Shown in pieces: positions 26,703 to 50,814 of a stretch of 64,000 nt of DNA. Each line of letters starts with the position of its first letter. Within the stretch, counting starts at the first letter, position 1. The stretch comes from an uncultured Methanosarcinaceae archaeon (GTDB lineage: Archaea > Halobacteriota > Methanosarcinia > Methanosarcinales > Methanosarcinaceae), in assembly GCA_963721455.1 (NCBI GenBank), contig CAVRJG010000053.1, positions 64,001 to 128,000 on the forward strand, in the 5' to 3' direction. Under the pieces are notes generated by a model. It saw only the letters and a list, made by a program, of their open reading frames with translations, was not told the DNA's origin and did not search any database. The translations under genes and the position numbers were made by a program.

Positions 26703-29394
26703 TTACTTTTTCAAATCTTTCAATGCCTCAAGATTTCTCTCACAAAAATTAATTATCCTCGGATATTCTATTTCCTTTCCAATAGATAACGCCTGCTCAT
26801 AATACTCAATCGCTTTTTTGGATTCGCCAAGATCACCGTATGCTTTCCCTAAATTTTTAAGGCAATTTCCTTCTCCGCGCCTGTCCCCTATTTCTTGAGC
26901 AATTTTCAGTGCCTGTTCAAAATATTCAATTGCTTTCTTGGCTTCGCTCAGATGACTGTATGCGTTCCCCAGATTTCCAAGCCAATTTCCTTCTCCGCGC
27001 CTGTCCCCAATTTCTTGAGCAATTTTCAGTGCCTGTTCATAATATTCAATTGCTTTTCTTGGCTTCGCCCAGATGACTGTATGCTTCTCCAAGATTCCCA
27101 AGCTATGTCCTTCTCCGAGCCTGTCCCCGATTTCTTGAGCAATTTTCAGTGCCTGTTCATAATATTCAATTGCTTTCTTGGCTTCGCCCAGATGACTGTA
27201 TGCGCTCCCAGATTTCCAAGCCTATTTCCTTCTCCGAGCCTGTCCCCTATTTCTTGGGCAATTTTCAGTGCCTGCTCATAATATTCAATTGCTTTTCTCG
27301 GCTCGCTCAGATGAAAGTATGCGTTCCCCAGATTCCCAAGGTGATGTTCCTTCTGTGAGCCTGTCCCCTATTTCTTGAGCAATTTTCAGTGCCTGTTCGA
27401 AATATTCAATTGCTTTTTCGGGTTCGCTCAGATGAAAGTATGCGTTCCCCATATTTCCAAGCCAAGTTCCTTCTCTGTGCCTGTCCCCGATTTCTTCAGC
27501 AATTTTCAGTGCCTGTTCAAAATATTCAATTGCTTTTCTCAGCTTCGCTCAGATGAAAGTATGTGTCCCCTATATTTCCAAGCCAAGTTCCTTCTCTGCG
27601 TCTGTCCCCTATTTCTTGTAGCAATTTCCAGTGCCTGTTCATAATATTCAATTGCTTTTCTGGGTTCGCCCAGATGAATGTATGCGTTCCCCATATTTCC
27701 AAGGCTAGAGTTCTCCTTCTCTGCAGCCGGTCCCCTATTTCTTGAGCAATTTTCAGTGCCTGTTCAAATATTCAATTGCTTTTCTCTGGTTCGCCTCAGA
27801 TTGAACGGTATGATTCCCCTATATTTCCAAGCCAAGTCCCTTCTCTGCATCTGTCCCCTATTTCTTGTACCAATTTTCAGTGCTTGTTCATAATATTCAA
27901 TTGCTTTTCTGGGTTCGCCCAGATTAAAGTATGCGTTCCCCAGGTTTCCAATAATAAAACCATTATTCTCAACATCTTTCAAAATAATTTTAGTCGAAAA
28001 ATGGTCTTTGGGTAATATTTTTACATAGAGGTCAATAAGTGCTGTATAATTGCCCCAAAGATCAAGGCGTTCATCCAGATTGTTGGCAAATATGATATTA
28101 AAAGCCTCGTCATATTCTTTGGCCATGCAGGCATGGTGATGGGCTTCTATTAAAGACTGAACGTCTTCTTTTTTTGTAGGTTTGGCTGGCAGGGGAAAGG
28201 AAAGGTAGTATTTGCAGGCAAGTTTGTGGCGCTCGGATTCTTCAGATAATCGGGTTGCGGCATACTTGCTTATTAACGATTCTTCCCAGTAATTTTCACC
28301 GTTTTTTTGTAAAAGAGATTTACGAATTAATTTCAATGCAATTTTATTTACCCTCGATTCAGTCCATTTTGGATCATTAGCTATTTTTGTGATTGCTCTT
28401 GCAGGCACTGGCTGCCTGAAAACGGATACATATTGAAGAAGCTTACATTCATCATCGGAGAGCCTGTCGTTGTAGACTTTACCAAGAATATTTTCTGCTA
28501 CTTCCCCTTCTTCTCCAATCCAGATTGAATCATCGTTTAGGAGAGCTGAAAGAGTATCTTCTCCAGACCTTACAAGTTGAGCTAGAAGGAGGAGGGCAAG
28601 AGGATGACCACCAGACTTATCTACAGCTCTTTTTAAGCATTCACCCGAGTCATTTAAACCCTCTCTCCTTAATAACAGAATTCCAGATGATGTGTCAAGT
28701 CCCTTAATTTGGTAAAAAAATGGTCTGATTCCTCTCTCACTTGAGATAGATTCCCAGCTGGTAAACAGAATTTTACTTCTGATACTGTTTTCATTTGCTT
28801 TTTCTATTAGTTCAGAAAAGCCGATTTTTGACTCTAAAGGTTTGTTTGTTTTAGGATTAAGGAGAATTTCAAAATTATCGAGAACTAAAAGATATGGAAA
28901 TTTGTTTAATTCGTGAAACATAAGGTTTATTTGATCTGCAATTTTGTAGCTTTCGAGGTCTTTAATCGGTTTGCCAATAACAGTAAAAAAACTATCTATA
29001 ATTTCACTAATATCCGTTGCTTCTTCAACTTTACGCCAGTATATTCCAGTAAATTTTCCAATTTCTTATACTTCTGTCAACGTACATACTTGCCAGAGTA
29101 GATTTGCCTTTTCCGCAAAAACCAGTGATGACAAGAGCGCTCCTGTTTTTTAAATAAGTTTTCTATGTATTCAAGCTCTTCTTCTCTTCCAAATATTCTA
29201 TTAGGATCGGTAGCAGGTTTGGCACCCTGTGTATAAATCCATGAATGTTCATTTTTAGTTGAGCCTTCAGGTGATATCATGACAGTTTTAATCTGTGTTA
29301 TGTTTTCACCGATAGCGCTTTGACCGGAGATATTTCCCTGTGTAAAATTTCCACGCACGGTTATTATTGGAACAGAAGGATCATCTGCTTTCAT
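26703..29394 (-). pseudogene. NLR-like STAND (NB-ARC-type) ATPase with C-terminal TPR array; multiply frameshifted as given
   Basis: IFGREEELE; Walker A restored across a shift in an A-run (SALVITGFCGKGKSTLA, about 29090-29140); Walker B YLLVLDNFE; FTSWE sensor; GGHPLALLL (GxP); about 10 TPR units GNLGNAY..LGE..KAIEYYEQALKIAQEIGDR. Confidence 0.85.
26780..27950 (-). repeat. Tandem ~120-bp (40-aa) TPR-encoding repeats, about 10 copies
   Basis: CAATTTTCAGTGCCTG core (or 1-nt variants) recurs near 26900, 27020, 27140, 27259, 27380, 27500, 27622, 27747, 27871. Confidence 0.92.
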
Positions 29395-29438
29395 GTGAAA
29401 AAACCTCTAATCAAGCGAATCTTCTAATAAAGCCGTAA

Positions 29439-29849
29439 TCAGAGCGCTATACCGAGTAAACCAGCTACTATCTTGACCGAACCACATATTTCGGATATGT
29501 TTTTCACGGTTTTTCCGGCATCTTTAAGAGTTTCAATAACACTTTCGACTCTTGTCTTGATCTTTTGCAATTTTGGCTCTTCTTTTCCGGTTTCTATGAG
29601 GGCGGCATTTACATCGCCTTTGATGGTCTCTTTATCTTCGGAAGAAAGATCTATTTTGACTAGTTCTTCCTGAAAATCAAGGAGGCTTTTCTTGAGTTTT
29701 TCAATGTCAACAGTGGATGAAGATTGGATTTGGGATATATTTTTTCCAATTGCAAACTGCCCGCTGACATCACCTATGTGTACATCTCCACCGGCATTTA
29801 TTCCGTAGCCTTTATCCTCCATGTTCTTAGAATCATTTTCTTCGGACAT
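29439..29849 (-). CDS. Small protein: N-terminal Gly/Asn/Gln-rich motif plus helical C-terminal domain; putative partner (effector) of the downstream NLR-like gene
   Basis: GAGAGG RBS; 44 bp upstream of the STAND gene on the same strand; shares SGQxAIGxNI[ST]QI with the STAND N-terminus; hydrophobic end VKIVAGLLGIAL. Confidence 0.8.
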   Translation of the reverse strand: MSEENDSKNMEDKGYGINAGGDVHIGDVSGQFAIGKNISQIQSSSTVDIEKLKKSLLDFQEELVKIDLSSEDKETIKGDVNAALIETGKEEPKLQKIKTRVESVIETLKDAGKTVKNISEICGSVKIVAGLLGIAL

Positions 29850-30792
29850 TCAAAACCTCTCTCAAATTTGAATTATGTCTGCCATCACAAGTTGTGATAT
29901 TTTTTATGGACCATTATATTAAATAGTGTAGAAATAAGAACGTCCTTGATATAGAGATTTCGAATTAGTTTCAAAGTAGACGTAATAGTACCTGACCCTC
30001 GATTTTTATCGTAGTTTCATAATTATAATCTCCAAAAAACTCAGAATCATTTCGGAAATTACGGACTCTCCGCCTGCTTCGCAGGCGTATGGTTGCCCTG
30101 TTTTCAAAAAGTATCAAACAATTAAAAACTGGCTCCGTACTCCAAAATTTTAGAAAACTATACCTACCGGTACTCGATCTTTCAAAAATCTATTCAAAAA
30201 AGCGACCCCGAAAAATAAGTTTACCGCCCGGCTCCCCTCCGGACTGAAAGCCCGCCGCCGGAAATTAATCTCCAGAAACGCTTATTCAGGCAATTGATAC
30301 GAAAGAAATATCGTCTCATTTGATATAGCCACCTGGTAAATCTTAACAGATTTTTATTTGCTAAAATATATTCTATTTGTTGTATACTATTTAAAATCAT
30401 GTCAAAAGATTATGATTACGGATAATATATTCTATGTGGTTTATATACTCTGGAATGGTATAACTTATATACTCATTGGCTTTTGAGATTTGAAAATATT
30501 CGTCTCAAAATGAAAATGAGGGCACTCAAACAGGAAAACCGGGTCGTAGGGGTAGATTAACTGGAAATCGTGAGCATAAAAATTGCTCTTAAATTTTACA
30601 AAATAAGGTAGACGTGCCAGTTTTGTGAGATTTGATCAATGACTCATCCCCAAAAATCGGCTCTTAAAATGAATTGCTTCCAGGTTCCCCTCCGGACCGG
30701 AAGCCCGCCGCCTGAAGCTGACTCCTAAAAAAATTTATTCCGGCGGCGGTGTTTGAGTGAAGGATTCTTTTTTCTTCACCCGTGTCTGTTAT

Positions 30793-33606
30793 TCAGTTTT
30801 CTGCTTCTTCTGCTTCTTCTGTTTCTTCTGCTTCTTCTGTTTCTTCTGCTTCTTCTGCTTCGCCCGTATCTTCAAATTCTTCAAGCTCTTCTACTTCTTT
30901 GGCTTCGTCCTCTGAGATCTCCAGTTCTTCTGATTTTTCTGCTTCTCTGGCTTTAAGGGCGGTCAGTTTCAGCTGCTCTTCGACTGTTCCGCTTTTGATC
31001 CTGGCAACGCCTACAACCTTGTCGCCGGGTTTGATGTTCATCACTCTTACGCCCTGGGTGTTTCTGCCCTGGACTGAGATGTCTTTTGCCGGGAGGCGGA
31101 TGATGATGCCTTCGGAGCTGGTAATCATCAGCTCGTCATCTTCGGCTACGGATTTGACGTTGGAAACAAAGCCGTTCCTGATATTGGTGATAATAGTTAT
31201 CACGCCTCTTCCGCCGCGGCGGTGAGGTGGGTACTGGCCGTATTTGGTACGCTTACCAAAGCCGTTTACCGTCACCGTCAGGAGGGTTGTGGTCTCGTCA
31301 ACAAGATCCACGCTGACAACCTCGTCTTCAGGGCCGTCAAGGGTCATGCCGCGGACTCCTCTTGCAGTTCTGCCCATCGGGCGGACGTTTCCTTCGGAAA
31401 AGCGGATAGCTTTGCCTTTCTTTGAAACCATCAGCACTTCCTTCTTGCCGTCGGTCAGGAGGACTTTTACCAGCTCGTCGCCTTCGTCAAGACTGACTGC
31501 AATTATGCCTGCTTTCCTGGGGTTCCTGAACTCGGAGAGAGGGGTCTTCTTAATCGTGCCTGCCCTTGTTGCCATAAGCAGGTAGCGGTCTTCGGCAAAC
31601 TTCTTTACAGGGATCATTGCATTGACCATTTCGCCTTCCTGAAGCTCCAGGAGGTTTACTATGGCTTTCCCTCTGGACTGGCGGGAGCCTTCAGGGACTT
31701 CATAGACCTTCTGCCAGTAGAGCCTGCCAAGGTTCGTGAAGAAAAGGATATAGTTGTGGGTTGAAGAAATGAACAGGTTCTCCACAAAATCTTCTTCCTT
31801 CATCTCCATGCCGATTATGCCCCTGCCTCCACGCCGCTGCATAGTGTAAGTGTCAAGCGGGAGGCGCTTTATGTAGCCTCCGTTTGTAATCGTGACAATA
31901 ACATCTTCTTCAGGAATCAGGTCTTCGTCCGTAACCTCGGCAGCATCATGCACGATTTTTGTCCTGCGGGCGTCTCCGTACTTTTCCTTGAGCTCCAGAA
32001 GCTCGTTCCTGATTATTTCGTGCTTGAGCTCTTCGCTTTCAATGATTTTGCTGAGTTGGGCGATCAGCTTTACGAGGCCTTCAAGTTCCTCAAGAATCTT
32101 CTGCGTCTCAAGCCCTGTCAGGCGCTGCAGGCGCATTTCCAGGATAGCTCTGGACTGGATTTCGTCAAGAGCGAAATTGTCCATCAGGCCCCGCTTTGCT
32201 TCATCAGCGTTTGCAGAACCTTTGATCAGGGCAACGACTTCGTCGATATTATCCAGGGCAATCCTCAGCCCTTCCAGAATATGGGCTCTTTCCCTGCTCT
32301 TCCTGAGGTCATAGAGCGTCCGCTTCTGGACAATTTCCATCCTGTAGTCCAGGTAGATTTCAAGGAGACGCTTCAGGTTCAGTTCTTTTGGCTTTCCGTC
32401 CACAAGGGCAAGGTTGATGACCCCGAAACTGGTCTCCATTTGCGTGTGCTTGTAGAGCTGGTTCAAGATAACCTTCGGATTTGTGCCCCGTGAAAGCTCG
32501 ACAACAACCCTGATCCCATCCCTGTCTGACTCGTCCCGTAAATCGGAAATCCCGACTATTATCTTATCCCTGACAAGCTGGGCAATATTCTCGATCATCC
32601 GGGCCTTATTCACCTGGTAAGGGAGCTCTGTTACGATAATCTGCTGCCTGTCTTTCTTTAATTCCTGGATCTCGGCAACCGCCCGAATCTTTATGGGGCC
32701 TCTTCCGGTTGTGTACGCAGACTTTATACCCGTTGTGCCAAGGATATGGGCGCCTGTAGGGAAGTCCGGCCCCTTGATTACAGTCATAAGTTCCGGAATT
32801 GTCGTTTCCGGATTCTCGATAAGCATGAGGGTACCGTCAATTACCTCGCTTATGTTGTGGGGTGCCATGTTTGTTGCCATCCCCACTGCAATGCCTGTAG
32901 ACCCATTAACAAGAAGGTTAGGAAGTTTTGCGGGGAGAACTTCGGGCTCTTCCATGGATCCGTCATAGTTGGGTCTGAAAGGCACCGTCTCCTTATCGAT
33001 ATCTGCCAGCATCTCCTCTGCGATTTTATCCATACGGACTTCAGTATAACGCATGGCTGCAGCCCCGTCCCCATCAATGGACCCGAAGTTCCCCTGCCCG
33101 TCGATTAGAGGGTAGCGCAGCGAGAAATCCTGTACCATCCGCACGATACTGTCATAAACGGCAGTGTCTCCGTGGGGGTGGTATTTACCAAGCACGTCAC
33201 CCACCACACGGGCGGACTTCTTAGAAGGCTTATCATGAGTAATCCCGGCTTCTTTCATTGCAAAAAGGATTCTGCGGTGGACTGGTTTTAAGCCGTCCCT
33301 GGCATCGGGAAGTGCCCTTCCTACAATTACGCTCATTGCATAGTTGATGTAAGAACGTTTCATCTCATCTTCGATGAGGATAGCAGTAACTCCTGTCCTT
33401 TCGGGTTCTGGTTCTTCGTCCTCAGGCTCGCCTGAAGCAGTATCGGATACAGTTATTTCTAATTTATGTTCCGGCTCTTCGTGTTCAAAGGCGGCTGAAC
33501 CTTCTCCATTTTCCGGCTCTTCATCTTTCTCTTCCGGGATAAGGGTAGCCTGATGAGTTTTTTTCATTTCAGCTTCTGATTTCTTTTCTTCTTCGTATTT
33601 TGCCAT
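30793..33606 (-). CDS. gyrA: DNA gyrase subunit A with long acidic N- and C-terminal extensions
   Basis: [24 protein letters not shown] (catalytic Tyr), GyrA-box QRRGGRG, pinwheel repeats. Confidence 0.97.
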
Positions 33607-33617
33607 TTTTAGCCACC

Positions 33618-35528
<1,911 letters not shown>

Positions 35529-41985: not shown

Positions 41986-42011
41986 GGAATTTTACCTCAG
42001 GCTGAAAAATC

Positions 42012-42140
42012 AATCTAATGTTTCTTTTAATCCAATGTTTCTTTCAATCTAATGTTTCTTTTAATCCAATGTTTCTTTTAATCCAATGTTTCTTTCAATC
42101 TAATGTTTCTTTTAATCCAATGTTTCTTTTAATCCAATGT
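42012..42140. repeat. 17-bp tandem repeat (AATC[CT]AATGTTTCTTT[TC]) x7 plus a partial unit, upstream of top6B
   Basis: Direct reading of units; no spacers. Confidence 0.92.
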
Positions 42141-42190
42141 GTCCTTATTATTTTACAAACATTTAAATTAAAAAATTTCTGTTTCTCTAA

Positions 42191-42370
42191 GAGGCTGTCT
42201 TAAAATTCAAACCATTCATACAATTGGATAATGGAGAATATAAACTTTAAATTCATACAGTAAATTTTTTCCAAAATTCAGGTACACATTGACCTTAAGA
42301 ATGGTATTTTATTCCATGGGATTTATGCACTTGATATATAAAATTAAATGTAATAACCATCATTGTTTAA
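42191..42370 (+). mobile_element. Truncated copy of the GAGGCTGTCTTAAAATT-ended MITE
   Basis: Colinear with 43212-43390; preceded by TAA; ends where the next element begins. Confidence 0.75.
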
Positions 42371-42500
42371 GAACCCATCCCAAAACTAAAAATTGCTTCT
42401 CTGTATCTCGTATTATTAATAATCAATCGGGTTTCTGAGAATGGAAAATAGTTCTGAAACCTTACTGATTTGAGAATAAAATTGGTTTTGGGATGAGCTC
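42371..42500. mobile_element. 130-bp MITE with CATCCCAAAAC terminal inverted repeats
   Basis: GAACCCATCCCAAAAC ... GTTTTGGGATGAGCTC. Confidence 0.75.
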
Positions 42501-42806
42501 AATAAGAAACAATAATTCTGGAAATATTATATAACATGTGATTATATATATGTAAATATGTACTATAATGTACTCATGACTATTGAAATTAAACACTCCC
42601 TCTCAAACGAGAATGAGAAAATGAATCATTTCTAAAAACAACTACCATGAGTATAGTACAGGATTGGGGGGTTGATGACGAATTTGATTAGAGAATTGCA
42701 TTCTGATCTTAAAAGTTCATCTTCTCCTATATGCAAAAAGACTGTGAAGAAAATGCAGTAAACAAGAATATAAAAAAATACAGTATAAACCATGGGGGTA
42801 AACAAA

Positions 42807-43019
42807 ATGTTCGGATTCGGTTTTGATAGATTCGACGGTAACCGTTGTGGATGTGGCGGCTTTAGTGGTTGTGGCGGCTTTGATGGCGGCTTTGGTGGCT
42901 GCGGCGGCTTTGGCGGCTGTGGCGGCTTTGACGGCGGTTGTGGCGGCTGGGGTGGTCGCTTTGGTGGGTTCCGCGGTGGCTTCCGAGGCGGCTTCAACGG
43001 CCGTCGTGGCCGCTGGTAA
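42807..43019 (+). CDS. Gly/Cys/Phe/Arg-rich micro-protein (70 aa)
   Basis: GGGGGT RBS before ATG 42807; GC-rich ORF within AT-rich flanks; GCGGF and RGGF repeats; tandem TAATAA stop. Confidence 0.7.
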   Translation: MFGFGFDRFDGNRCGCGGFSGCGGFDGGFGGCGGFGGCGGFDGGCGGWGGRFGGFRGGFRGGFNGRRGRW

Positions 43020-43211
43020 TAACGGTCGAGTTTGAAAGAATTATTGAGCATGAAAGGAAAAAAGGACGATAGCCATCTTTTCAAGGCATGACGGAAAATT
43101 CCTGAAAAACCGTCTGTTCTTGAACTGATGACTATTTATCTTTACTTTTTGAATATATTTTTCGAAAATGTTAGCGAATTATTATTGCAGACTCTCCAAT
43201 GGAATTTCTAA

Positions 43212-43491
43212 GAGGCTGTCTTAAAATTCAAATCATTCCTACAATTGGATAATAGACAACGTTAACTTTAAATTCAAACCGTAAATTTTTCAGAAATTCA
43301 GGTATACATTAACCTTAAGAATATTACTTTCCCATAGGATTTACATACTCGAGGTATAAAATCAGATGCAGTAAACATCATTGTTTAAAATTACATTTTA
43401 GACACTTAATGGTTTAACGTTACTGTTTTTCAGTTCAAGTGTGTAAGTTCTATCCCAATTATAGAACCAAATTTAATTTTAAGACACGCTC
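43212..43491. mobile_element. 280-bp MITE (IS5-like ends) with TAA target duplication
   Basis: GAGGCTGTCTTAAAATT ... AATTTTAAGACACGCTC, TAA on both sides. Confidence 0.8.
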
Positions 43492-43633
43492 TAAGGTTAT
43501 ACATTTTAATAATGCGGTGTCTTTTTAAAAGCACTTTTTGGCAGTGTACCGAAAGTTCTGTAAAATCATATTTGTCAAGAAGTTATTGATAGAAAATTCA
43601 ACACACTAATAGATCCCAAAGAATAGCTACATT

Positions 43634-44641
43634 TTAAGATATATTGTTGGTATCTTTTCTTCTGTATTTTTCTTTTAATAACGTATCTACATTAAGAAGT
43701 TCTTTATTTATTTCTTCCAATAATAACCCCATAACGTACAAAAAAGCATTATTTTCTACATTTGGTCTTGAAGTTAAAAGAGCTTTGTTCATATATTGTA
43801 GCGATACTACCATGTTTGAGCCAGGGTCTGCGAGTCCTGCATCACTTTGTCCTACGAGCAAGATTTTTCCTTGATCTGAATCCATGAGTCCTAGATTATG
43901 ATAATTTCCTTTTGGACCTGCATGAACAGGATGGTTAGCCATGTTATAAAATGGTCTTAGATAATCAAGTCCTACATCTCTTTCAATGCCTTCGAAGTTA
44001 CAATATTTAGCTTCTAGCACTTTTGCTGCCCAACCATGAGACTTTTCATAACGATCACCATATTTAGAACGCAATTCTTTTCTTTTCTTCGCTACTCTTA
44101 TCATATCTTCAATCGTATCATAAGGAACGTAGCCTAAAATATCAGAATGTTTTTTATATAGATCATTGTTTTTTAAATAATCTTCAAAAAGATTATAAGA
44201 TTCAATGTAACGATAGTCTAAATAACGTTCTGCAATTTCGTTACCATGTTTACTTATAAACAAACCAGTAACAGCGGTTTCGTGAAGGCTGCGCCACCGA
44301 GCAAATGCACCAGAGGCATATCCATTTTTCATGAGTGTAAGGATCTCTTGTCCAATGAGACAGGCTTTTGCATGAAGTCTTACCAGAACTTTAAAAACAT
44401 AGTCTTTTTGTTCTGATGCATTTTGATTTTCTTCATTAAATTTGTCTCCCGCCTCTATGGAGAGTATCAAAAAAAGCTCAAGTAAATCTAAGGGGCATTT
44501 CCAAAGTTCATTTAATTTTTTGTTAAATGCTTCTGTCTCCTCGTGGTCTTTTTGTAAAATCTCTGGTGCGTTCTTTAATCTTTCAAATAATTGTGCTATT
44601 TCCTTTTTGAGTTCTCCAGAGTTTTCAATATTTTCTTCCAT
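43634..44641 (-). CDS. DUF5677-like (HEPN-related) helical protein
   Basis: LMKNGYASGAFARWRSLHE and Y..AN..VH motifs; AT-rich. Confidence 0.65.
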   Translation of the reverse strand: MEENIENSGELKKEIAQLFERLKNAPEILQKDHEETEAFNKKLNELWKCPLDLLELFLILSIEAGDKFNEENQNASEQKDYVFKVLVRLHAKACLIGQEILTLMKNGYASGAFARWRSLHETAVTGLFISKHGNEIAERYLDYRYIESYNLFEDYLKNNDLYKKHSDILGYVPYDTIEDMIRVAKKRKELRSKYGDRYEKSHGWAAKVLEAKYCNFEGIERDVGLDYLRPFYNMANHPVHAGPKGNYHNLGLMDSDQGKILLVGQSDAGLADPGSNMVVSLQYMNKALLTSRPNVENNAFLYVMGLLLEEINKELLNVDTLLKEKYRRKDTNNIS

Positions 44642-45403
44642 AGTATCGCTTTTACTGACTCATAGGTTTAAGTTATTGTGTTGATGTTTTCATGATTTAA
44701 GATTTTAAGAATTTCAGTTTAAGGCACGACTTTTTATATCTTTTTATACGAACCTTTTGTCATAGAACGTTCGGTTCTCGATAGTTTCCAGCAAGTAGTA
44801 AACGTCTTTTAGTGTATTTTGACCAGTGAATTAACTACTATCCAAACGTAGGGTCGTCCATTGATATAGGGTTGGTGTTTTAGGGGGAAATATTGAAACT
44901 TCTCTTCAATTCGTTTTAGGTTATTTCGACACGATCGTTCTAAAAATTCCAAAGTCGCGAAAAGAATGAGGGTAGAAATTATTTTTGTTATTGTGGAATA
45001 ACAACAACTGAATACAAATGGACGACCTAAGTATGTAGTGGGTTTTGAAACCGGTTAACATTTGACCCAAATCCCACTACATATATAAACAATGAACTAT
45101 TTTTGCAATAATGTTCAGTATAAAGGATAATGTGTTTTCCAGCAAAAACGCTATCAATAAAAATATTACGAAAAAAAACAAGTGACCTGCCGAAAGCAGG
45201 CTATATGATCAAAAAACTCAAGTCTCCCATGGTGATTTATACCTTACACTCATCGAAAATGCATGTTATTGATGCTAAAATGAGCAAGTGATGATATGAA
45301 TGAACTGCAATTATTATCAAGAGGAAGGTGACGATATAAATTTTTACACAATAAATCATCCAAATCTTTCTCAAAATGGATTATCATGGAATGAATAATA
45401 TAA

Positions 45404-45599
45404 CCCTAATTTGACAGAAGCATACATTTTATAATGTATAAATGGGCTTCATGCTTCTGTTTTCTTCATAAAATTCAAAGTTATTTCATACGTTTTTTGA
45501 TTTTTGACGTTTTTCATTTTTCCTAAAGGTACTGCGCCGATACAACGCGTTTTTTGTGTGAAAATACTATACTAATTAGTAGAATCTGTCAAATTAGGG
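45404..45599. mobile_element. 196-bp MITE with perfect 15-bp TIRs and 6-bp target duplication
   Basis: CCCTAATTTGACAGA ... TCTGTCAAATTAGGG flanked by ATATAA on both sides. Confidence 0.85.
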
Positions 45600-45695
45600 A
45601 TATAAGATGTAAAAAATATAAGGCAAATATTTAAAAAATCGCATTCGTTCTGAATGTACTTAACTTATATTGAAAGAAAATTTAGTACTTAGACA

Positions 45696-46628
45696 ATGAA
45701 TAGCTCATTATGGTCAGAAAACATTCTTAATTTAGCTACTTTTTTAACATCAATTGTATCCCTCTTCACACTAAATGAATTAAGAAAACAAAGATATTTA
45801 GCAAACTCACCCAAGCTTCATATTACATCAAAAAAAAATATTATTTCAGCCACAAACAAACGGGTTTGGTACGTAGAGAAAGAGCTTCCACTTATGTGGG
45901 AAAGTAAGTTTTTAGACGGAATGAAAGATGAGCTGTTGGAAGAAATCGATAACGATTATCCACCCATGTACTCAATCCCACTAAATTTAATCAACATTGG
46001 ATCAACCCCCGCTTTAAATGTCAGAATTGCTTGGAATTATGATAACGAAGGCCGAGAAAGTATAAAGAATATAATAAATAAATTCAATGAATTGGACCTG
46101 GGAGTTAAGTGTGAAATTCCAGACGACACTTATAATGATTCCCTTCATGTAACTCGTCAAAGTGCTACAGATGATAAACTTATGATTTTGGGAAAGAAGA
46201 TAAAAAGATACATTAGCATGGAATTAATGCCTCTTAATATTGAGTATTTATTACCCTTTTCAGAATCGAACCGAGGAACTCAAATTTTAATTCCATACCC
46301 ATATACTTCAATTATAGCTTTAGAATTAAGTGTATTAAGCTTATCAGAAATAAGCTTATCAGAAAATCACCATGATTATTCATTTCCGACTCTTTATGCC
46401 GATGTCTCGTATTATGATAACATAAATATACTTCATAAAGAGAAGTTATCGGTTAAATCTGTTATTAATGAGGCACAGTGGCAATTTAATAAGTGCATGT
46501 GTGAAAAAAAACTTGATTTTATTAATTTCACTATTGAGACACATAAGATCAATGGAAATAAAATGAATGATAATGGTCACTTCGAAACTACAGTGCAACT
46601 TAGCAAAGAGTCGAAATTAAAAGATTAA
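45696..46628 (+). CDS. Hypothetical protein with N-terminal membrane anchor
   Basis: 310-aa ORF in AT-rich DNA; hydrophobic N-terminal helix followed by ELRKQR..P.L. Confidence 0.7.
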   Translation: MNSSLWSENILNLATFLTSIVSLFTLNELRKQRYLANSPKLHITSKKNIISATNKRVWYVEKELPLMWESKFLDGMKDELLEEIDNDYPPMYSIPLNLINIGSTPALNVRIAWNYDNEGRESIKNIINKFNELDLGVKCEIPDDTYNDSLHVTRQSATDDKLMILGKKIKRYISMELMPLNIEYLLPFSESNRGTQILIPYPYTSIIALELSVLSLSEISLSENHHDYSFPTLYADVSYYDNINILHKEKLSVKSVINEAQWQFNKCMCEKKLDFINFTIETHKINGNKMNDNGHFETTVQLSKESKLKD

Positions 46629-46687
46629 CGTTATATTCGAAAAAGTATATCAAAAACTCCAGGTTCCTAGGGGATTATACCTTTCAT

Positions 46688-46837
46688 GGTTCCGTTGCAA
46701 AAAATCTGGCTCCCTTGCAAAATCAAAAAAAACCTTCACAATTAGGAAATTTAATCATTTTCATTAGAAAGAAAATGACACACACAGGTAAAAATTATAG
46801 TGTCAAATTGCAGAAATATTTTTTTTGCAACGGAACC
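46688..46837. mobile_element. 150-bp IS6-family-derived MITE
   Basis: GGTTCCGTTGCAAAAAA ... TTTTTTGCAACGGAACC; same end as the IS6 remnant at 57662-57678. Confidence 0.85.
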
Positions 46838-46910
46838 GGGAATTGTAAGTATAAGATTTAATAAAATGTATATAGGCAAGAAGCTAAGGATTTTTGTAGA
46901 GGTTGATTAA

Positions 46911-47948
46911 ATGGAGTCTATTAAAGAACCTACTGATCTTTGTGTTCCAATTTACTTAGATCAGCAAATTGTTTTTGATTTACTTGCCATGTTAGAAAAT
47001 GGATTTTCTCAAATAAATACTGTAAACACATCCACAACAGGTACGAAAATAGATGATTCAAAAAGAGGTGCATCTTTAGGCAGCACTGCCTTATCTTTGT
47101 TTGATTTTTCTTTAAATGGAAACAAGCATAAAACAATCACTACGACAGATAATGAACAGCAATCTATGGAAAAAATACATACACCTTCATCAATGTTTTC
47201 AATACTTCGTCGTACGCTCTACGAAAAAAAATTTATATCCCCCATGGATACAATGGATGAAATCGGGAATTTGAAATGTGGGGACTTTGTAGAGTTTAGA
47301 TCAAAACTTAAGACTAATCCCTTAATGGATTCCTTCAATCGTATGAGGGAAGTATCTAAGTATTTGGTCAAATATTCAGACCAGATTGATAAAAGGAGAA
47401 TCAGTGAAAAAACGGCAGAAGAAATAGAAACAAAGATAGAATCAATCCAAGAAAGAGATCGGAATAAACGAAAAATTAAAAACCCAGTCCAGAATAACCA
47501 AATTAATGTTCCAACTCAAGATAATCAAAATAATGTTCCAACTCAAGATAATCAAAATAATGTAGCACTCTTTCAATGGATATTTGAATTATCAGATGAT
47601 TTACTGAACTCTAATTCAACTGAAATAATTGGAAATCTATCTGATCAAACTCTGGTCAATGTAGATCTTTCTGCTAAGGTTAATTGTTTTGTGAATAATG
47701 ATACATCTCTTGTAATGAATGGCGAGTTTTCTGTATTTGGAAAAGTCACTCAGGTTATATCATGTGATTCTGAAGACACAATAGATCTCTTACAGAAAAC
47801 AAATCTCAGATCATTCGGTGAAGACGTCATTAAAAAGTTTACTGATGCATTTGATCAGGTACCAAATAACGCTATAACTTTACCAAAAGTAATAACAAAA
47901 ATAAATGGCCCCGCTATTCAGGTATTACCAATTGCAATATTTATATAA
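46911..47948 (+). CDS. DUF6414-like hypothetical protein
   Basis: PIYLDQQIVFDLLA.LENGF, EKIHTPSSMFS.LR, GEFSVFGKV, C-terminal AIQVLPIAIFI; AGAGGT RBS. Confidence 0.7.
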   Translation: MESIKEPTDLCVPIYLDQQIVFDLLAMLENGFSQINTVNTSTTGTKIDDSKRGASLGSTALSLFDFSLNGNKHKTITTTDNEQQSMEKIHTPSSMFSILRRTLYEKKFISPMDTMDEIGNLKCGDFVEFRSKLKTNPLMDSFNRMREVSKYLVKYSDQIDKRRISEKTAEEIETKIESIQERDRNKRKIKNPVQNNQINVPTQDNQNNVPTQDNQNNVALFQWIFELSDDLLNSNSTEIIGNLSDQTLVNVDLSAKVNCFVNNDTSLVMNGEFSVFGKVTQVISCDSEDTIDLLQKTNLRSFGEDVIKKFTDAFDQVPNNAITLPKVITKINGPAIQVLPIAIFI

Positions 47949-47974
47949 TATTGAACAATTTAAGAAATATTCTA

Positions 47975-48110
47975 GGAAGTGTCGCGAATTTTCTGTAAAT
48001 CCGAAGTCAATTTTTTGTGCACTGTATATTATTTTGTTCTTCCGATATGGAATTTTCTAACTTGTAACTTCTTGAGATTTGTGATTTTACAGCAAATTAG
48101 GCACACTGCC
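47975..48110. mobile_element. 136-bp MITE (GGCAGTGT-type ends)
   Basis: GGAAGTGTCGCGAATTTTCTGTAAA ... TTTACAGCAAATTAGGCACACTGCC; same length and sequence family as 59716-59851. Confidence 0.8.
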
Positions 48111-48492
48111 GTTTAAAGTATAAGATCTTACAGATATTTCGTAAAATCCTTTCTAAATTAGGTAGCTACAACAAACTAGTAGAGCAAGTACAATTAAAAA
48201 AAAGATCATAAAAAGAAAAAATAATACCCCAATCAAAAAAAGTCCTGTTTCCACAATATCATCTTTTTTAGTGCCCTAAAATTAATAATATGGAATAGAT
48301 AGTAGTCTATATAAGTATTTTTAAATTTGTAAAGTGTGTTTTGAAATCAACAGTAATATCAATGTGGATTTTTTGATTAAGCTTGAAATTTGCACAGCTT
48401 GATATGCATATTCTCATTTAGTCTTTATATCTGATTATCTTTCGTACGTAGGTGGTCATAAATAATTTAATTATATTCTCCTAATACTCGAT

Positions 48493-49185
48493 TTATATTT
48501 TATAAAGCATATATTCATTTGAAATTGTATCTTTGTCAAAATGCAATCCACCTTGTGTGTCAACCTCCTTATTATCCGTTTGATATAACGTAAAATATAT
48601 GTAATAGTCTTTTTGATAGAAATCCAGATAACGTTCTGGTTTAATAATTTGTGCATTAACCATTAATTCTCCGTTAGGAGGAATTCTAAGGGAATATCGA
48701 TGACTATTATTAGAAGTTTTCAACTCAACTTTTCCTGGATCATCTATAGTAAAGGTAATTTCGTTAGCTACTTTTTCGTTTCTTGCTCCTTTTACTGTAA
48801 CAATATGAAATTCACCTTCGTTAGAAAGATTAATTTCGCTGGATTTAGTATTAATAATTTTAATATGTAAATCAGGTATTATATGAGATGAGTTATAATT
48901 AATGAAAAAAATTGTAGGGATTAATACTAAAATTATGATAATGATAAATCGAATACGTTTAATGTATGTGGGTATCATTTGTTTCTTGAAAAAAAATATA
49001 TAACTTACAATAACTAATAATATATACAATCCAGTAATCAATTCTATACTATAATAATACATTTTTAGTAGAAAGGCTGGAATAGATAGAACAATTGATA
49101 GAACAATTGTAGAAATTACTGTAGAAACTACTGTAGAAAAAATCACAGGAGTTGTTTCATCTAATATATCAGGCATACTTTTCAT
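48493..49185 (-). CDS. Hypothetical membrane protein (3 N-terminal TM helices plus soluble domain)
   Basis: 230-aa ORF; hydrophobic stretches in aa 13-95. Confidence 0.65.
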   Translation of the reverse strand: MKSMPDILDETTPVIFSTVVSTVISTIVLSIVLSIPAFLLKMYYYSIELITGLYILLVIVSYIFFFKKQMIPTYIKRIRFIIIIILVLIPTIFFINYNSSHIIPDLHIKIINTKSSEINLSNEGEFHIVTVKGARNEKVANEITFTIDDPGKVELKTSNNSHRYSLRIPPNGELMVNAQIIKPERYLDFYQKDYYIYFTLYQTDNKEVDTQGGLHFDKDTISNEYMLYKI

Positions 49186-49513
49186 AATATTATCAAAGTA
49201 CAGTTAATAGTAATATTTTTCTAAATTTCTCTTTTACAGTAGTTCTGGAAGCTATGAGAAGATATCAACAGAATTTCGTTCAAACAAGTGTGTGAATCAA
49301 CTCTAATTTTTGCAAATATTTATTTATCATTTTTATTCATAAAAGTAATATAAAAATGATTATTCTATTCAAAAATACTTTCACTCTGCTTTCCTTAATT
49401 TTATATTCTGTGAGGTCATTTTCAGTCATGATAAATATATTTGTAATTAATATGTAAAAAATCATCGCAAAAATTTGGACTACAAATATAGTAACTCGAT
49501 AATATAGAGGATA

Positions 49514-49975
49514 ATGATGAATATTATTAGAATCTCTGAAACAGAAAGCAAAATGTTACTAGATATGGGAATTGATCCAATAAAATGTAATGATTATCAA
49601 ATATTATGTCTTCCGGAAAATTTCCAGCAGGGTTCAAAAGATAATTTATATGACGCTGATTCTACAATTAATTTATATAAAATTCTAAAAAACAGTGGAA
49701 TAAAATGTGCTAATTCTTATGATTTAGGTATTGATTCCGAGACATCTATTAGACAAAATAATGACATATACCTAGGGTTAGTATGGATTTTTAGTAACAT
49801 TGCCGTTCCAATATTTACGAGTATTGTATATGATTATTTCAAAGGAAAAATGGGTAATAAAAGTAAAATCCATGTTGAAATTCGATTGCCAAATGGTAAG
49901 ATGTTTAAACATGAAGGCGATGCTGAAACTTTAAAAGAGCGTCTAGAAGAGGAATTTAAAGAGTATGAGGGGTAA
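49514..49975 (+). CDS. Hypothetical protein, first gene of an overlapping two-gene module
   Basis: AGAGGA RBS; central hydrophobic helix; stop lies at the start of the next gene. Confidence 0.7.
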   Translation: MMNIIRISETESKMLLDMGIDPIKCNDYQILCLPENFQQGSKDNLYDADSTINLYKILKNSGIKCANSYDLGIDSETSIRQNNDIYLGLVWIFSNIAVPIFTSIVYDYFKGKMGNKSKIHVEIRLPNGKMFKHEGDAETLKERLEEEFKEYEG

Positions 49976-50814
49976 TATGGGTGGAAATGTATTGGAAGAA
50001 AATGCACTTTCTACTCTTTCACAGTGTATATCATCAATTAAATCTAATGAACTGGATAAAGCAATATCAGAAGCACAAATTTTTATAGATAAATGTAAAA
50101 ACGTTATAAATACTGAGAGAGATTCGCACTGTTTTGAATTTTCTAATGAAGCACTATTCTTAGGGCTGGTTACGAAATAACTTAAGTAACACATAATTAT
50201 TTCGGAACGAAATCGTTGGAGCTGCTTATGAAAATAGTTACATACAGTGTAAAAATGTACTTAAGTTATTTCGCGGTAGATCCTTAGGTATTTTTTTTCG
50301 TGGGATACAAAACTTTGCACGTTTAAAGCAAATGACAGTATCTTCTGATTGGATAAGAAATCCTGAATTAGTAGAGAAAGTTTGGCTCGAAATGTGGGAT
50401 TGTAAAGATCGTTTAGAATATACATCTCCGTTAATTAAAACGATATGTATAGAGTGGATTTTTAATGACATTAATTCGCTATATCAGGATTTCTACCAAA
50501 ATTTTGGACATGGTTTATATGTAAGTCTAAGTTTCTTAGCTCAAAGGATGATGTGTAACATATGCGGTCAAGATATACGAGCTTGTGAACATCTTCCAGG
50601 TATGATTTATTCAGGTAAGATCTGTGGAGATATTCCACAAGGAATTACTCCCAACCATGTTTTACTTACAGAGCATCCCAATGATCCTCGCTGTAGGATA
50701 TGGCCTTGGAATAAGGGAGAAGAACCTAATGAGAAAGTTGGTAGTACTTATGGCGTATGTCTTTTATCTTTCTTTATGTTAGATGATTTTATGTATGAAT
50801 CTGGCTATAAATAA
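49965..50814 (+). pseudogene. Cys/His-motif protein interrupted by a 121-bp insertion
   Basis: Removing 50163-50283 plus one TTA joins ...EALFL to GIFFRGIQNFARLKQMTVSS... in frame; CNICG...CEHLPG..YSGKIC motif. Confidence 0.8.
50163..50283. mobile_element. 121-bp MITE with TTA target duplication
   Basis: Perfect 16-bp IR CGAAATAACTTAAGTA (50173-50188)/TACTTAAGTTATTTCG (50258-50273), GG...CC ends, TTA on both sides. Confidence 0.85.

Follow-up and report, generated by a model that had tools for sequence, protein, structure and literature searches.

Why should a large STAND receptor and the small protein encoded beside it carry almost the same short run of residues near their N-termini? The question is raised by one locus in the 64,000-nucleotide (nt) stretch of DNA from an uncultured Methanosarcinaceae archaeon analysed here (contig CAVRJG010000053.1; referred to below as the window, in whose positions all coordinates are given), where two genes on the minus strand encode a small protein, which we call the effector (29439..29849), and, downstream of it, a STAND (NB-ARC-like) and TPR receptor (26703..29394). 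From the evidence set out below we consider it very likely that these genes make up a homotypic, motif-coupled STAND–effector module whose receptor has decayed. The same evidence bears on a wider question, namely whether the motif signals by amyloid-like templating.

A motif common to adjacent genes

The effector gene is intact and encodes 136 amino acids plus a stop codon, as judged from the list of open reading frames (ORFs), its homologues and PADLOC; an acidic leader precedes the motif, which is followed by a helical domain of about 90 residues and a short, hydrophobic, glycine-rich tail. The effector-side motif spans residues 14–45 (29715..29810) and matches the hidden Markov model (HMM) described below with E = 4e-21, or 7e-18 genome-wide; its 22-residue core, GDVHIGDVSGQFAIGKNISQIQ, occupies residues 21–42 (29724..29789). 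A spacer of 44 nt (29395..29438, from the ORF positions) separates the effector stop codon from the receptor start codon, and the second copy of the motif lies at residues 11–41 of a 105-residue ORF at the receptor N-terminus (29272..29364; E = 2e-12, or 1.4e-14 genome-wide), with its core, GNFTQGNISGQSAIGENITQIK, at residues 15–36 (29287..29352).

An initial annotation, made from the letters of the window alone, had placed the motif at effector residues 21–42 and at residues 15–36 of the receptor ORF, with 12 identities in 22 ungapped positions; we recovered the same residues and coordinates, and a recount by hand gave the same 12/22. BLASTP aligned the effector with the 105-residue ORF over 27 positions, 13 of them identical and 20 positive (E = 3e-6); with an orthologous receptor that is intact it gave 16/33 identities (E = 3e-7). 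The remainders of the two proteins had been described as unrelated and, indeed, no second significant similarity between effector and receptor was found by BLASTP outside the motif.

The HMM, built from 95 effector- and receptor-side segments, was run against the 3.94-Mb genome in six frames, in which there are 44,564 stop-to-stop ORFs 40 residues long or longer. Only four strong matches were obtained (E = 7e-18 to 2e-13), and these come from two pairs, that of the window and another on contig C54, both members of each being matched; the next-best match, to a repeat protein, has an E value of 0.0097. Because only four of the 44,564 ORFs match, the likeness is not a matter of chance, and the shared motif is far beyond what chance would give. 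A motif-only profile of 53 sequences (A4) has the consensus xGGxGITAGGNVxIGDVSGQVAIGENIxQxQ and a mean column identity of 62%, with G19, G24 and Q29 invariant in 53/53.

Recurrence of the gene pair

The pair was followed through 73 loci, of which 10 came from species genomes, 30 from genomes of the order and 33 from metagenome contigs. Deduplication left 47 stand-alone effector genes; the motif is present in 45, and downstream sequence of 200 nt or more is available for 45. Of the latter, 38 are followed, at −23 to +150 nt past the effector stop codon, by a co-oriented ORF with an N-terminal motif (HMM E ≤ 1e-3), so that one short motif is common to a STAND/NLR N-terminus and to the product of an adjacent collinear gene. 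The effector is present in 23/284 genomes of the order and in 7/58 of the same genus, the window genome excluded, and the motif, by the A4 profile, in 22/284 of the order, largely the same genomes. By record title, the hosts include Methanosarcinales, ANME-2/Methanogaster, two Planctomycetota metagenome-assembled genomes (MAGs) and one Nitrospinae MAG. The loci of an anammox-type Planctomycetota MAG (L002) and of the Nitrospinae-labelled MAG (L004) are near-identical, and in both the effector frame is open into the upstream gene, giving ORFs of 386 and 405 residues; this may be a binning or gene-fusion artefact.

Six full-length partners were scanned against Pfam: TPR_12 was found in all six and NB-ARC in four, the others matching nSTAND6/NPHP3_N or nothing but AAA-type NTPase families. 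Some partners are proteins of about 300 residues with motif and TPR and no NTPase (L034, L056, L061 and L062). The receptors fall into a class A, to which the window type belongs and in which the motif continues into a conserved ...C-T-F-x-x-P-D-G-S...S-W-x-Y-T-Q-G, and a class B, the type found on C54, where I-K-E-P-S-G-E and then a helix come after the motif. A database search with the motif alone (a 41-residue query against 5.8e9 sequences) gave no match, as expected at such a query length, and a family profile search among proteins of 544–2000 residues gave none.

At identical residues of the paired motifs, third-codon identity is only 0.46 (40 pairs, with L006 and L071 misregistered by a one-residue indel, which slightly lowers the means); the likeness is therefore kept by selection and not by recent gene conversion. 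This bears on the simplest alternative, that the likeness is a functionless relic, either of low-complexity convergence or of a leftover local duplication, as the compositional bias of the motif and the decay of the window receptor (see below) might lead one to suppose. Such a relic, however, should show neither the genome-wide specificity (4/44,564 ORFs), nor the recurrence in 38/45 loci across archaea and bacteria, nor the three invariant positions, nor third codon positions that are saturated while the residues are conserved; together these effectively refute it, and we give it hardly any credence.

Modularity of the motif and the defence context

The motif is found in a number of other architectures. 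A Trypsin_2-(half motif)-TIR_2 protein adjoins a TIR_2-motif-NB-ARC-TPR protein; another protein has the order motif-CHAT-nSTAND1-TPR; and a motif-TPR-motif-helical domain protein is followed by a motif-bearing receptor gene. In three loci (L107, L108 and L109) the order is LRR-Roc-COR-A-COR-B-motif, then a proline linker and two clear transmembrane helices. The two-helix module of these three loci occupies the place of the helical effector domain. In four unique proteins, the helical domain itself is fused directly behind Roc-COR GTPases, the motif being degenerate and below HMM detection. All partner domains of the motif are members of prokaryotic conflict systems. The motif is thus a modular, strongly conserved element common to adjacent genes.

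The presence of trypsin-like or CHAT peptidases in some of these loci, and the position of the motif near N-termini behind variable charged leaders, would suit a motif that serves as a handle for a third party, needed on both proteins: either a tag for localisation or degradation, or a site for cleavage or maturation by a protease. However, no peptidase gene was present in the retrieved flanks of most of the 38 pairs; the motif is also internal, between COR and transmembrane modules and between TPR and helical modules; and a handle of this kind would not be expected to produce the excess likeness within pairs that is described below. We regard this explanation as improbable.

A defence role is indicated by two kinds of context. 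The end of the effector motif and the helical domain resemble the PADLOC profile of a phage-defence candidate, PDC-M14B (PDLC04449/04451/04448), matching its C-terminal part at about positions 149–260 of 267 with E = 5.7e-9, and further members of the effector family match with E values of 4e-10 to 2e-3; the difference is that only the C-terminal 40% or so of the profile is covered. The PDC-M14A models found no match among the partners scanned, and a full PDC-M14 system was not recovered; a literature search found no paper mentioning the name PDC-M14. The PDC-M14B profile alignment also runs upstream of the small ORF (29850..30020, profile positions 76–150), across five stop codons, which may be noise in the alignment or the remnant of an ancestral gene that was longer.

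The second context is that of the C54 locus (66739..71869 on its contig; genome G000, loci L035/L097/L112). The pair here is intact, and consists of a small effector paralogue (maximal ORF 171 residues), a gap of 20 nt and a 1157-residue motif-STAND-TPR receptor. Directly upstream is an AbiTii gene (303 residues, Pfam E = 1.8e-41), and IstB-like and transposase-like genes of the insertion-sequence type lie immediately downstream. The PDC-M14B match and the AbiTii gene beside the C54 pair support the reading of these loci as conflict modules, and recurrence, modularity and context together give good support to the view that they are immune or cell-death modules. The C-terminal 100 or so residues of the C54 AbiTii protein have a layout similar to that of the effector (a G/Q/N stretch, helices and a hydrophobic end); hhalign of the effector family against this protein did not bear out a kinship (E = 0.054, probability about 1%).

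Decay of the window receptor

The receptor had initially been annotated as a single STAND-TPR gene at 26703..29394, a description that does not hold, as its parts sit in separate frames and the orthologues are intact. From the start codon at 29394 the frame stays open for only 105 residues. Three-frame translation places the P-loop, the NB-ARC-like body and the TPR units in differing frames: the receptor start codon and the Walker A box, GFCGKGKST (29097..29123), do not share a frame, and the NB-ARC-like body, of 433 residues, is read in the third frame (29065..27767). The TPR array (26739..27949), in units of about 120 nt, shows about eight frame switches between 27949 and 27055 when a TPR-unit HMM is run on the three frames, and a terminal ORF (26703..27101) holds the last three units in one frame (TPR_12, E = 1e-30). 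Similarly, tblastn of the intact orthologue L042 against the window is spread over three frames. The NB-ARC match of the window receptor is weak (Pfam E = 0.017) and no continuous ORF joins Walker A, NB-ARC and TPR, whereas L042, a metagenome locus encoding 750 residues, is intact, with NB-ARC at E = 2.1e-10 and TPR_12 at E = 1e-44.

Global DNA alignments were made to L042 and to L012, a locus of the congeneric genome G273. The two orthologues agree on four disrupting indels in the window copy (29071..29287), within the first 330 nt of the receptor: −7 nt (about 29287), −2 nt (about 29272), +1 nt (about 29158) and +1 nt (about 29071). The two deletions remove the conserved Y-x-[DN]-C-T-F stretch directly after the motif. 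In all, the receptor has at least 10 frame disruptions. The G273 locus is syntenic, with gyrB, gyrA, a gene of 136 residues and an intact receptor of 875 residues, and is 74% identical in nucleotides over the pair.

Assembly error is an unlikely source of these lesions, because the neighbouring gyrA (942 residues) is intact, because the TPR-rich 1157-residue C54 receptor is intact as well, and because deletions of 7 and 2 nt are present and not just homopolymer slips. Among public sequencing runs, none was found with more than 0.10 of the words of the stretch. Judged from its reading frames, synteny and orthologue alignments, the window copy of the STAND-TPR gene is a pseudogene, and the local module is therefore probably nonfunctional as written. 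The window effector therefore either stands idle or has the intact C54 receptor as a possible partner in trans; by hand count, its motif shares 16/29 identities with that of the C54 receptor and 13/29 with that of the window receptor. In four further loci (L041, L044, L021 and L057) the receptor partner is cut to 104–225 residues while the upstream effector gene is intact, which suggests that receptors of such pairs decay repeatedly.

With regard to the surroundings of the pair, the gyrA product (30793..33621, minus strand) is extended at each end by a long acidic segment, an E/A/T-rich repeat tail being part of these extensions. Further away, positions 42000..50000 have a GC content of 0.27–0.33, compared with about 0.43 elsewhere, and hold ORFs with DUF5677 and DUF6414 and several without a Pfam family; this low-GC stretch may be a genomic island.

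The effector family

The window effector matches no Pfam or NCBIfam family. Among 91 candidates, 35 close homologues were found, one of them named as a Methanosarcina barkeri hypothetical protein, and the family is rare, with only 53 cluster representatives at E ≤ 1e-3 among 1.84 billion. Members have a common layout: a variable charged leader or an extra N-terminal domain, the motif, the helical domain of about 90 residues and a short, hydrophobic, glycine-rich end. In all 45 motif-bearing stand-alone effectors the motif is N-terminal to the helical domain and in none is it C-terminal; the hydrophobic segment lies at the extreme C-terminus and not, as in Bell/HeLo effectors, in an N-terminal helix. 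An effector polarity inverted with respect to HeLo/BELL proteins, proposed in the initial annotation for this one protein, is thus a property of every stand-alone member seen here.

In the window protein, the helical domain covers residues 46–136 with the tail included (29442..29714), as delimited by a helical-domain HMM and the ESM Atlas model of a homologue (P0010), and the tail itself is VKIVAGLLGIAL (29442..29477). A C-terminal hydrophobic helix capable of membrane insertion had been suggested here. The hydrophobic end does exist, but its uncharged run is just 10 residues, which is also the median of 47 members; the best 19-residue hydropathy of the window effector is 1.77, compared with a family median of 1.05, and a few distant relatives have uncharged runs of 24 residues. 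The P0010 model has low confidence (pLDDT 0.59) and aligns to helical proteins over about residues 44–133; its structural matches are unnamed helical proteins and, at a TM-score of 0.52, an AbiTii cluster, which we take as a possible lead only. The best match of a PDB profile search with the effector family was a flagellin at E = 0.042, which is not meaningful.

No effector match was found by tblastn against phages, and against plasmids only weak matches were found (E = 0.1–0.7). One of these lies in a Fischerella plasmid (AP018300.1, locus L113, 1997..4282), in a protein of 762 residues, named 'pentapeptide repeat-containing protein', that has a multi-pass membrane region and ends in an N/Q/G-rich stretch and a helical module weakly like the effector (tblastn E = 0.1); there is a similar match in a Nostoc plasmid.

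Amyloid-like templating or a finite adaptor

The composition of the motif has the bias reported for BASS motifs. Over 1,537 residues from 53 motifs, Q is enriched 3.70-fold, G 2.78-fold, I 2.02-fold, N 1.86-fold and V 1.34-fold, and L (0.12-fold), K (0.31-fold) and P (0.30-fold) are depleted. Near-invariant glycines stand at columns 5, 9/10, 15, 19 and 24, about five residues apart, between short alternating hydrophobic stretches. Amyloid behaviour of the motif is plausible, in that it fits both this composition and the glycine spacing.

The motif had also been described as RHIM-type, and this we could not sustain. The core tetrad of RHIM is (I/V)-Q-(I/V/L/C)-G, and the PP-type pattern is N.G.Q.G. 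A RHIM-like tetrad occurs in 9/95 motif segments and in neither window motif, the nine probably being IQVG sequences with which some class-A receptors begin; the N.G.Q.G pattern occurs in 0/95.

Over 42 pairs, the mean local score of cognate motifs is 75.7, compared with 68.6 for non-cognate ones, a mean reached in 0/20,000 global permutations and in 8/20,000 within-class permutations (the set drops eight of 50 unique entries, L009, L020, L025, L027, L030, L045, L062 and L069, these being fused forms, partnerless or 5'-truncated in the motif). The expectation that receptor–effector pairs with co-varying motifs would recur is therefore borne out for the pairing itself, in the 38/45 loci, and less so for covariation, which is modest across the family and absent for the window pair.

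Several observations weigh against templated amyloid signalling through a membrane-acting effector. Pair-specific covariation is modest, and the window effector's own receptor ranks 32 of 42. Seven of the 45 effector genes have no HMM-detectable partner, two of these (L028 and L029) being followed by a TPR protein in which a divergent motif can be seen by eye; in L029, S-G-Q is replaced by S/A-P at the same place in both partners. No PDB chain, amyloid-signalling proteins included, is similar to the motif or to the family at E ≤ 0.01, and the best match of a PDB profile search with the motif has an E value of 0.41, which is not meaningful. The effector tail is short and lysine-interrupted and, judged from its residues, is too short to form a transmembrane helix alone.

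Four further points on that side are at the same time those expected if the motif were a non-amyloid homotypic adaptor, an effector-associated domain (EAD) in the sense of Kaur et al. 2020, which would form a finite complex on an oligomerised STAND ring and no templated fibrils. The motif varies much less between phyla (mean column identity 62%) than a fast-diversifying tag would lead one to expect. Single polypeptides that need no adaptor between proteins also retain it (Roc-COR-motif-2TM, where TM is transmembrane helix, and motif-TPR-motif-helical). The linker from motif to helical domain is only about five residues, so that the motif could belong to a fold, and a further conserved region of about 35 residues, which could form a small globular domain, directly adjoins the motif in receptors of class A. 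The layout fits an EAD exactly, with a copy on the core NTPase and another on the adjacent effector, adjacent copies being slightly more alike. On the other hand, for an autonomous globular domain a length of about 30 residues is small, and 20% Gly with hardly any Leu is an odd make-up; neither effector nor receptor N-terminus matched a Pfam EAD family at E ≤ 1, nor did any other family match at that threshold; and amyloid signalling motifs are reported to have just such a composition. On balance, we think an adaptor of this kind unlikely, though it deserves to be taken seriously.

Comparison with known systems

The closest parallels are with the Bell/BASS-NLR pairs of Dyrka et al. 2020 (bioRxiv 10.1101/2020.01.06.895854). 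As described there, BASS1–10 were defined by comparing C-termini of Bell and other effectors with the N-termini of neighbouring NLRs; two Methanosarcinales Bell/NLR pairs are among those reported, and BASS motifs have the same bias, rich in Q/N/G/V/I and poor in K/P/L. According to that account, the likeness extends to a motif of about 25–30 residues on an NB-ARC/TPR N-terminus and on a small helical protein of an adjacent collinear gene, to very short intergenic distances, and to alternative TIR and CHAT effectors and 'all-in-one' fusions. The difference is one of polarity, as in the Bell proteins so described the motif is C-terminal and the hydrophobic helix N-terminal, and here the order is reversed. 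In addition, the effector domain found here is without a Pfam match, matching only PADLOC PDC-M14B, and has no PDB sequence match. Because the screens, as presented in that paper, searched effector C-termini alone, they would miss this family; likewise, the rule stated in the text of a 2025 methods paper (PMC12261475) places motifs in NLR N-termini or effector C-termini. The literature searched yielded no account of an effector with its amyloid motif at the N-terminus, although the supplementary tables of Dyrka et al. and Ibarlosa et al. might list related loci.

The Bab/Agp system with BASS11 is reported by Ibarlosa et al. 2024 (bioRxiv 10.1101/2024.11.07.622273) to be a working abortive-infection system, the motif being described as four strands broken by glycines and as occurring also with TIR, CHAT, NACHT and NB-ARC. 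Going by that report, it resembles the present pair in having two genes, a small helical killer and a TPR sensor with a common motif, and in its glycine-broken short strands. It differs in that the Bab motif is C-terminal, Agp is TPR-GreA/B-C-PIN and not a STAND NTPase, and the function is experimentally proven, that of the present system being putative. The HET-S/NWD2 system of Podospora, as outlined in both of these papers, shares the principle that an NLR N-terminal motif templates the effector motif and so triggers a membrane-acting helical domain; it is fungal, however, with an N-terminal HeLo domain and two motif pseudo-repeats at the C-terminus, in place of the one N-terminal copy found here. 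The EAD principle set out by Kaur et al. 2020 (eLife, PMC7159879), in which a core NTPase and the effector from an adjacent gene bear the same small module, is matched by the layout found here, with adjacent copies closer to each other. The EADs described in that source are alpha-helical or alpha+beta, and the present motif is shorter and Gly/Gln-rich.

The family thus follows the known grammar of such pairs and differs from them in effector polarity, effector domain and motif sequence, BASS having been compared by its description only; because of these differences we do not class it in RHIM or in a named BASS family.

Proposed mechanism and significance

With the adaptor set aside as the less likely course, we return to amyloid-like templating. 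To our minds the chances are about even that the locus is the remains of a two-gene STAND/NLR conflict module, of abortive-infection or cell-death type, that includes such templating. On the pattern of the orthologues and the C54 pair, the intact receptor would be a motif of about 30 residues followed by NB-ARC and TPR, and the intact effector upstream of it would carry the same motif, the helical domain of about 90 residues and the short, hydrophobic, glycine-rich tail; we infer that the motif couples the one to the other by homotypic contact. Triggering of the TPR sensor would lead the NB-ARC domain to oligomerise and so cluster the receptor motifs, which might then stack as a beta-arch, amyloid-like, with one rung per chain. 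The stack would template the same fold on the effector motif, and the helical domain, released or assembled in this way, would allow the hydrophobic end to act on the membrane, by which the cell would be killed or arrested.

Somewhat more tentatively, and at less than even chances, the pairs may represent an undescribed family of prokaryotic amyloid signalling with a mirror-image effector, its motif N-terminal and its membrane-acting end C-terminal, common to Methanosarcinales, ANME-2 and anammox-type Planctomycetota. Each rung would have about five glycine-delimited strands, in a beta-solenoid that an NB-ARC/TPR, a Roc-COR or a TPR-only sensor would nucleate, and the several sensors and effectors of a genome would make up a cross-seeding network in which the C54 receptor could fire the window effector.

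Amyloid signalling from an NLR to a pore-forming effector is, by the accounts cited above, established in fungi and, since 2024, in an antiphage system of E. coli. The described cases all have the motif at the effector C-terminus, and published screens have looked only there, so that a conserved family of opposite polarity, with an unrelated effector domain and members in archaea and bacteria, would, if real, mean that the present catalogue is biased by the design of the searches. It would also be a clear example, from archaea, of cell death under amyloid control through a new killer domain, and would offer a compact archaeal system in which to ask if folding can be templated from the one end of such a domain as well as from the other. 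Finally, the decay of receptors beside intact effectors, in the window and in at least four related loci, raises the question of how potentially lethal effectors are kept safe or re-used.

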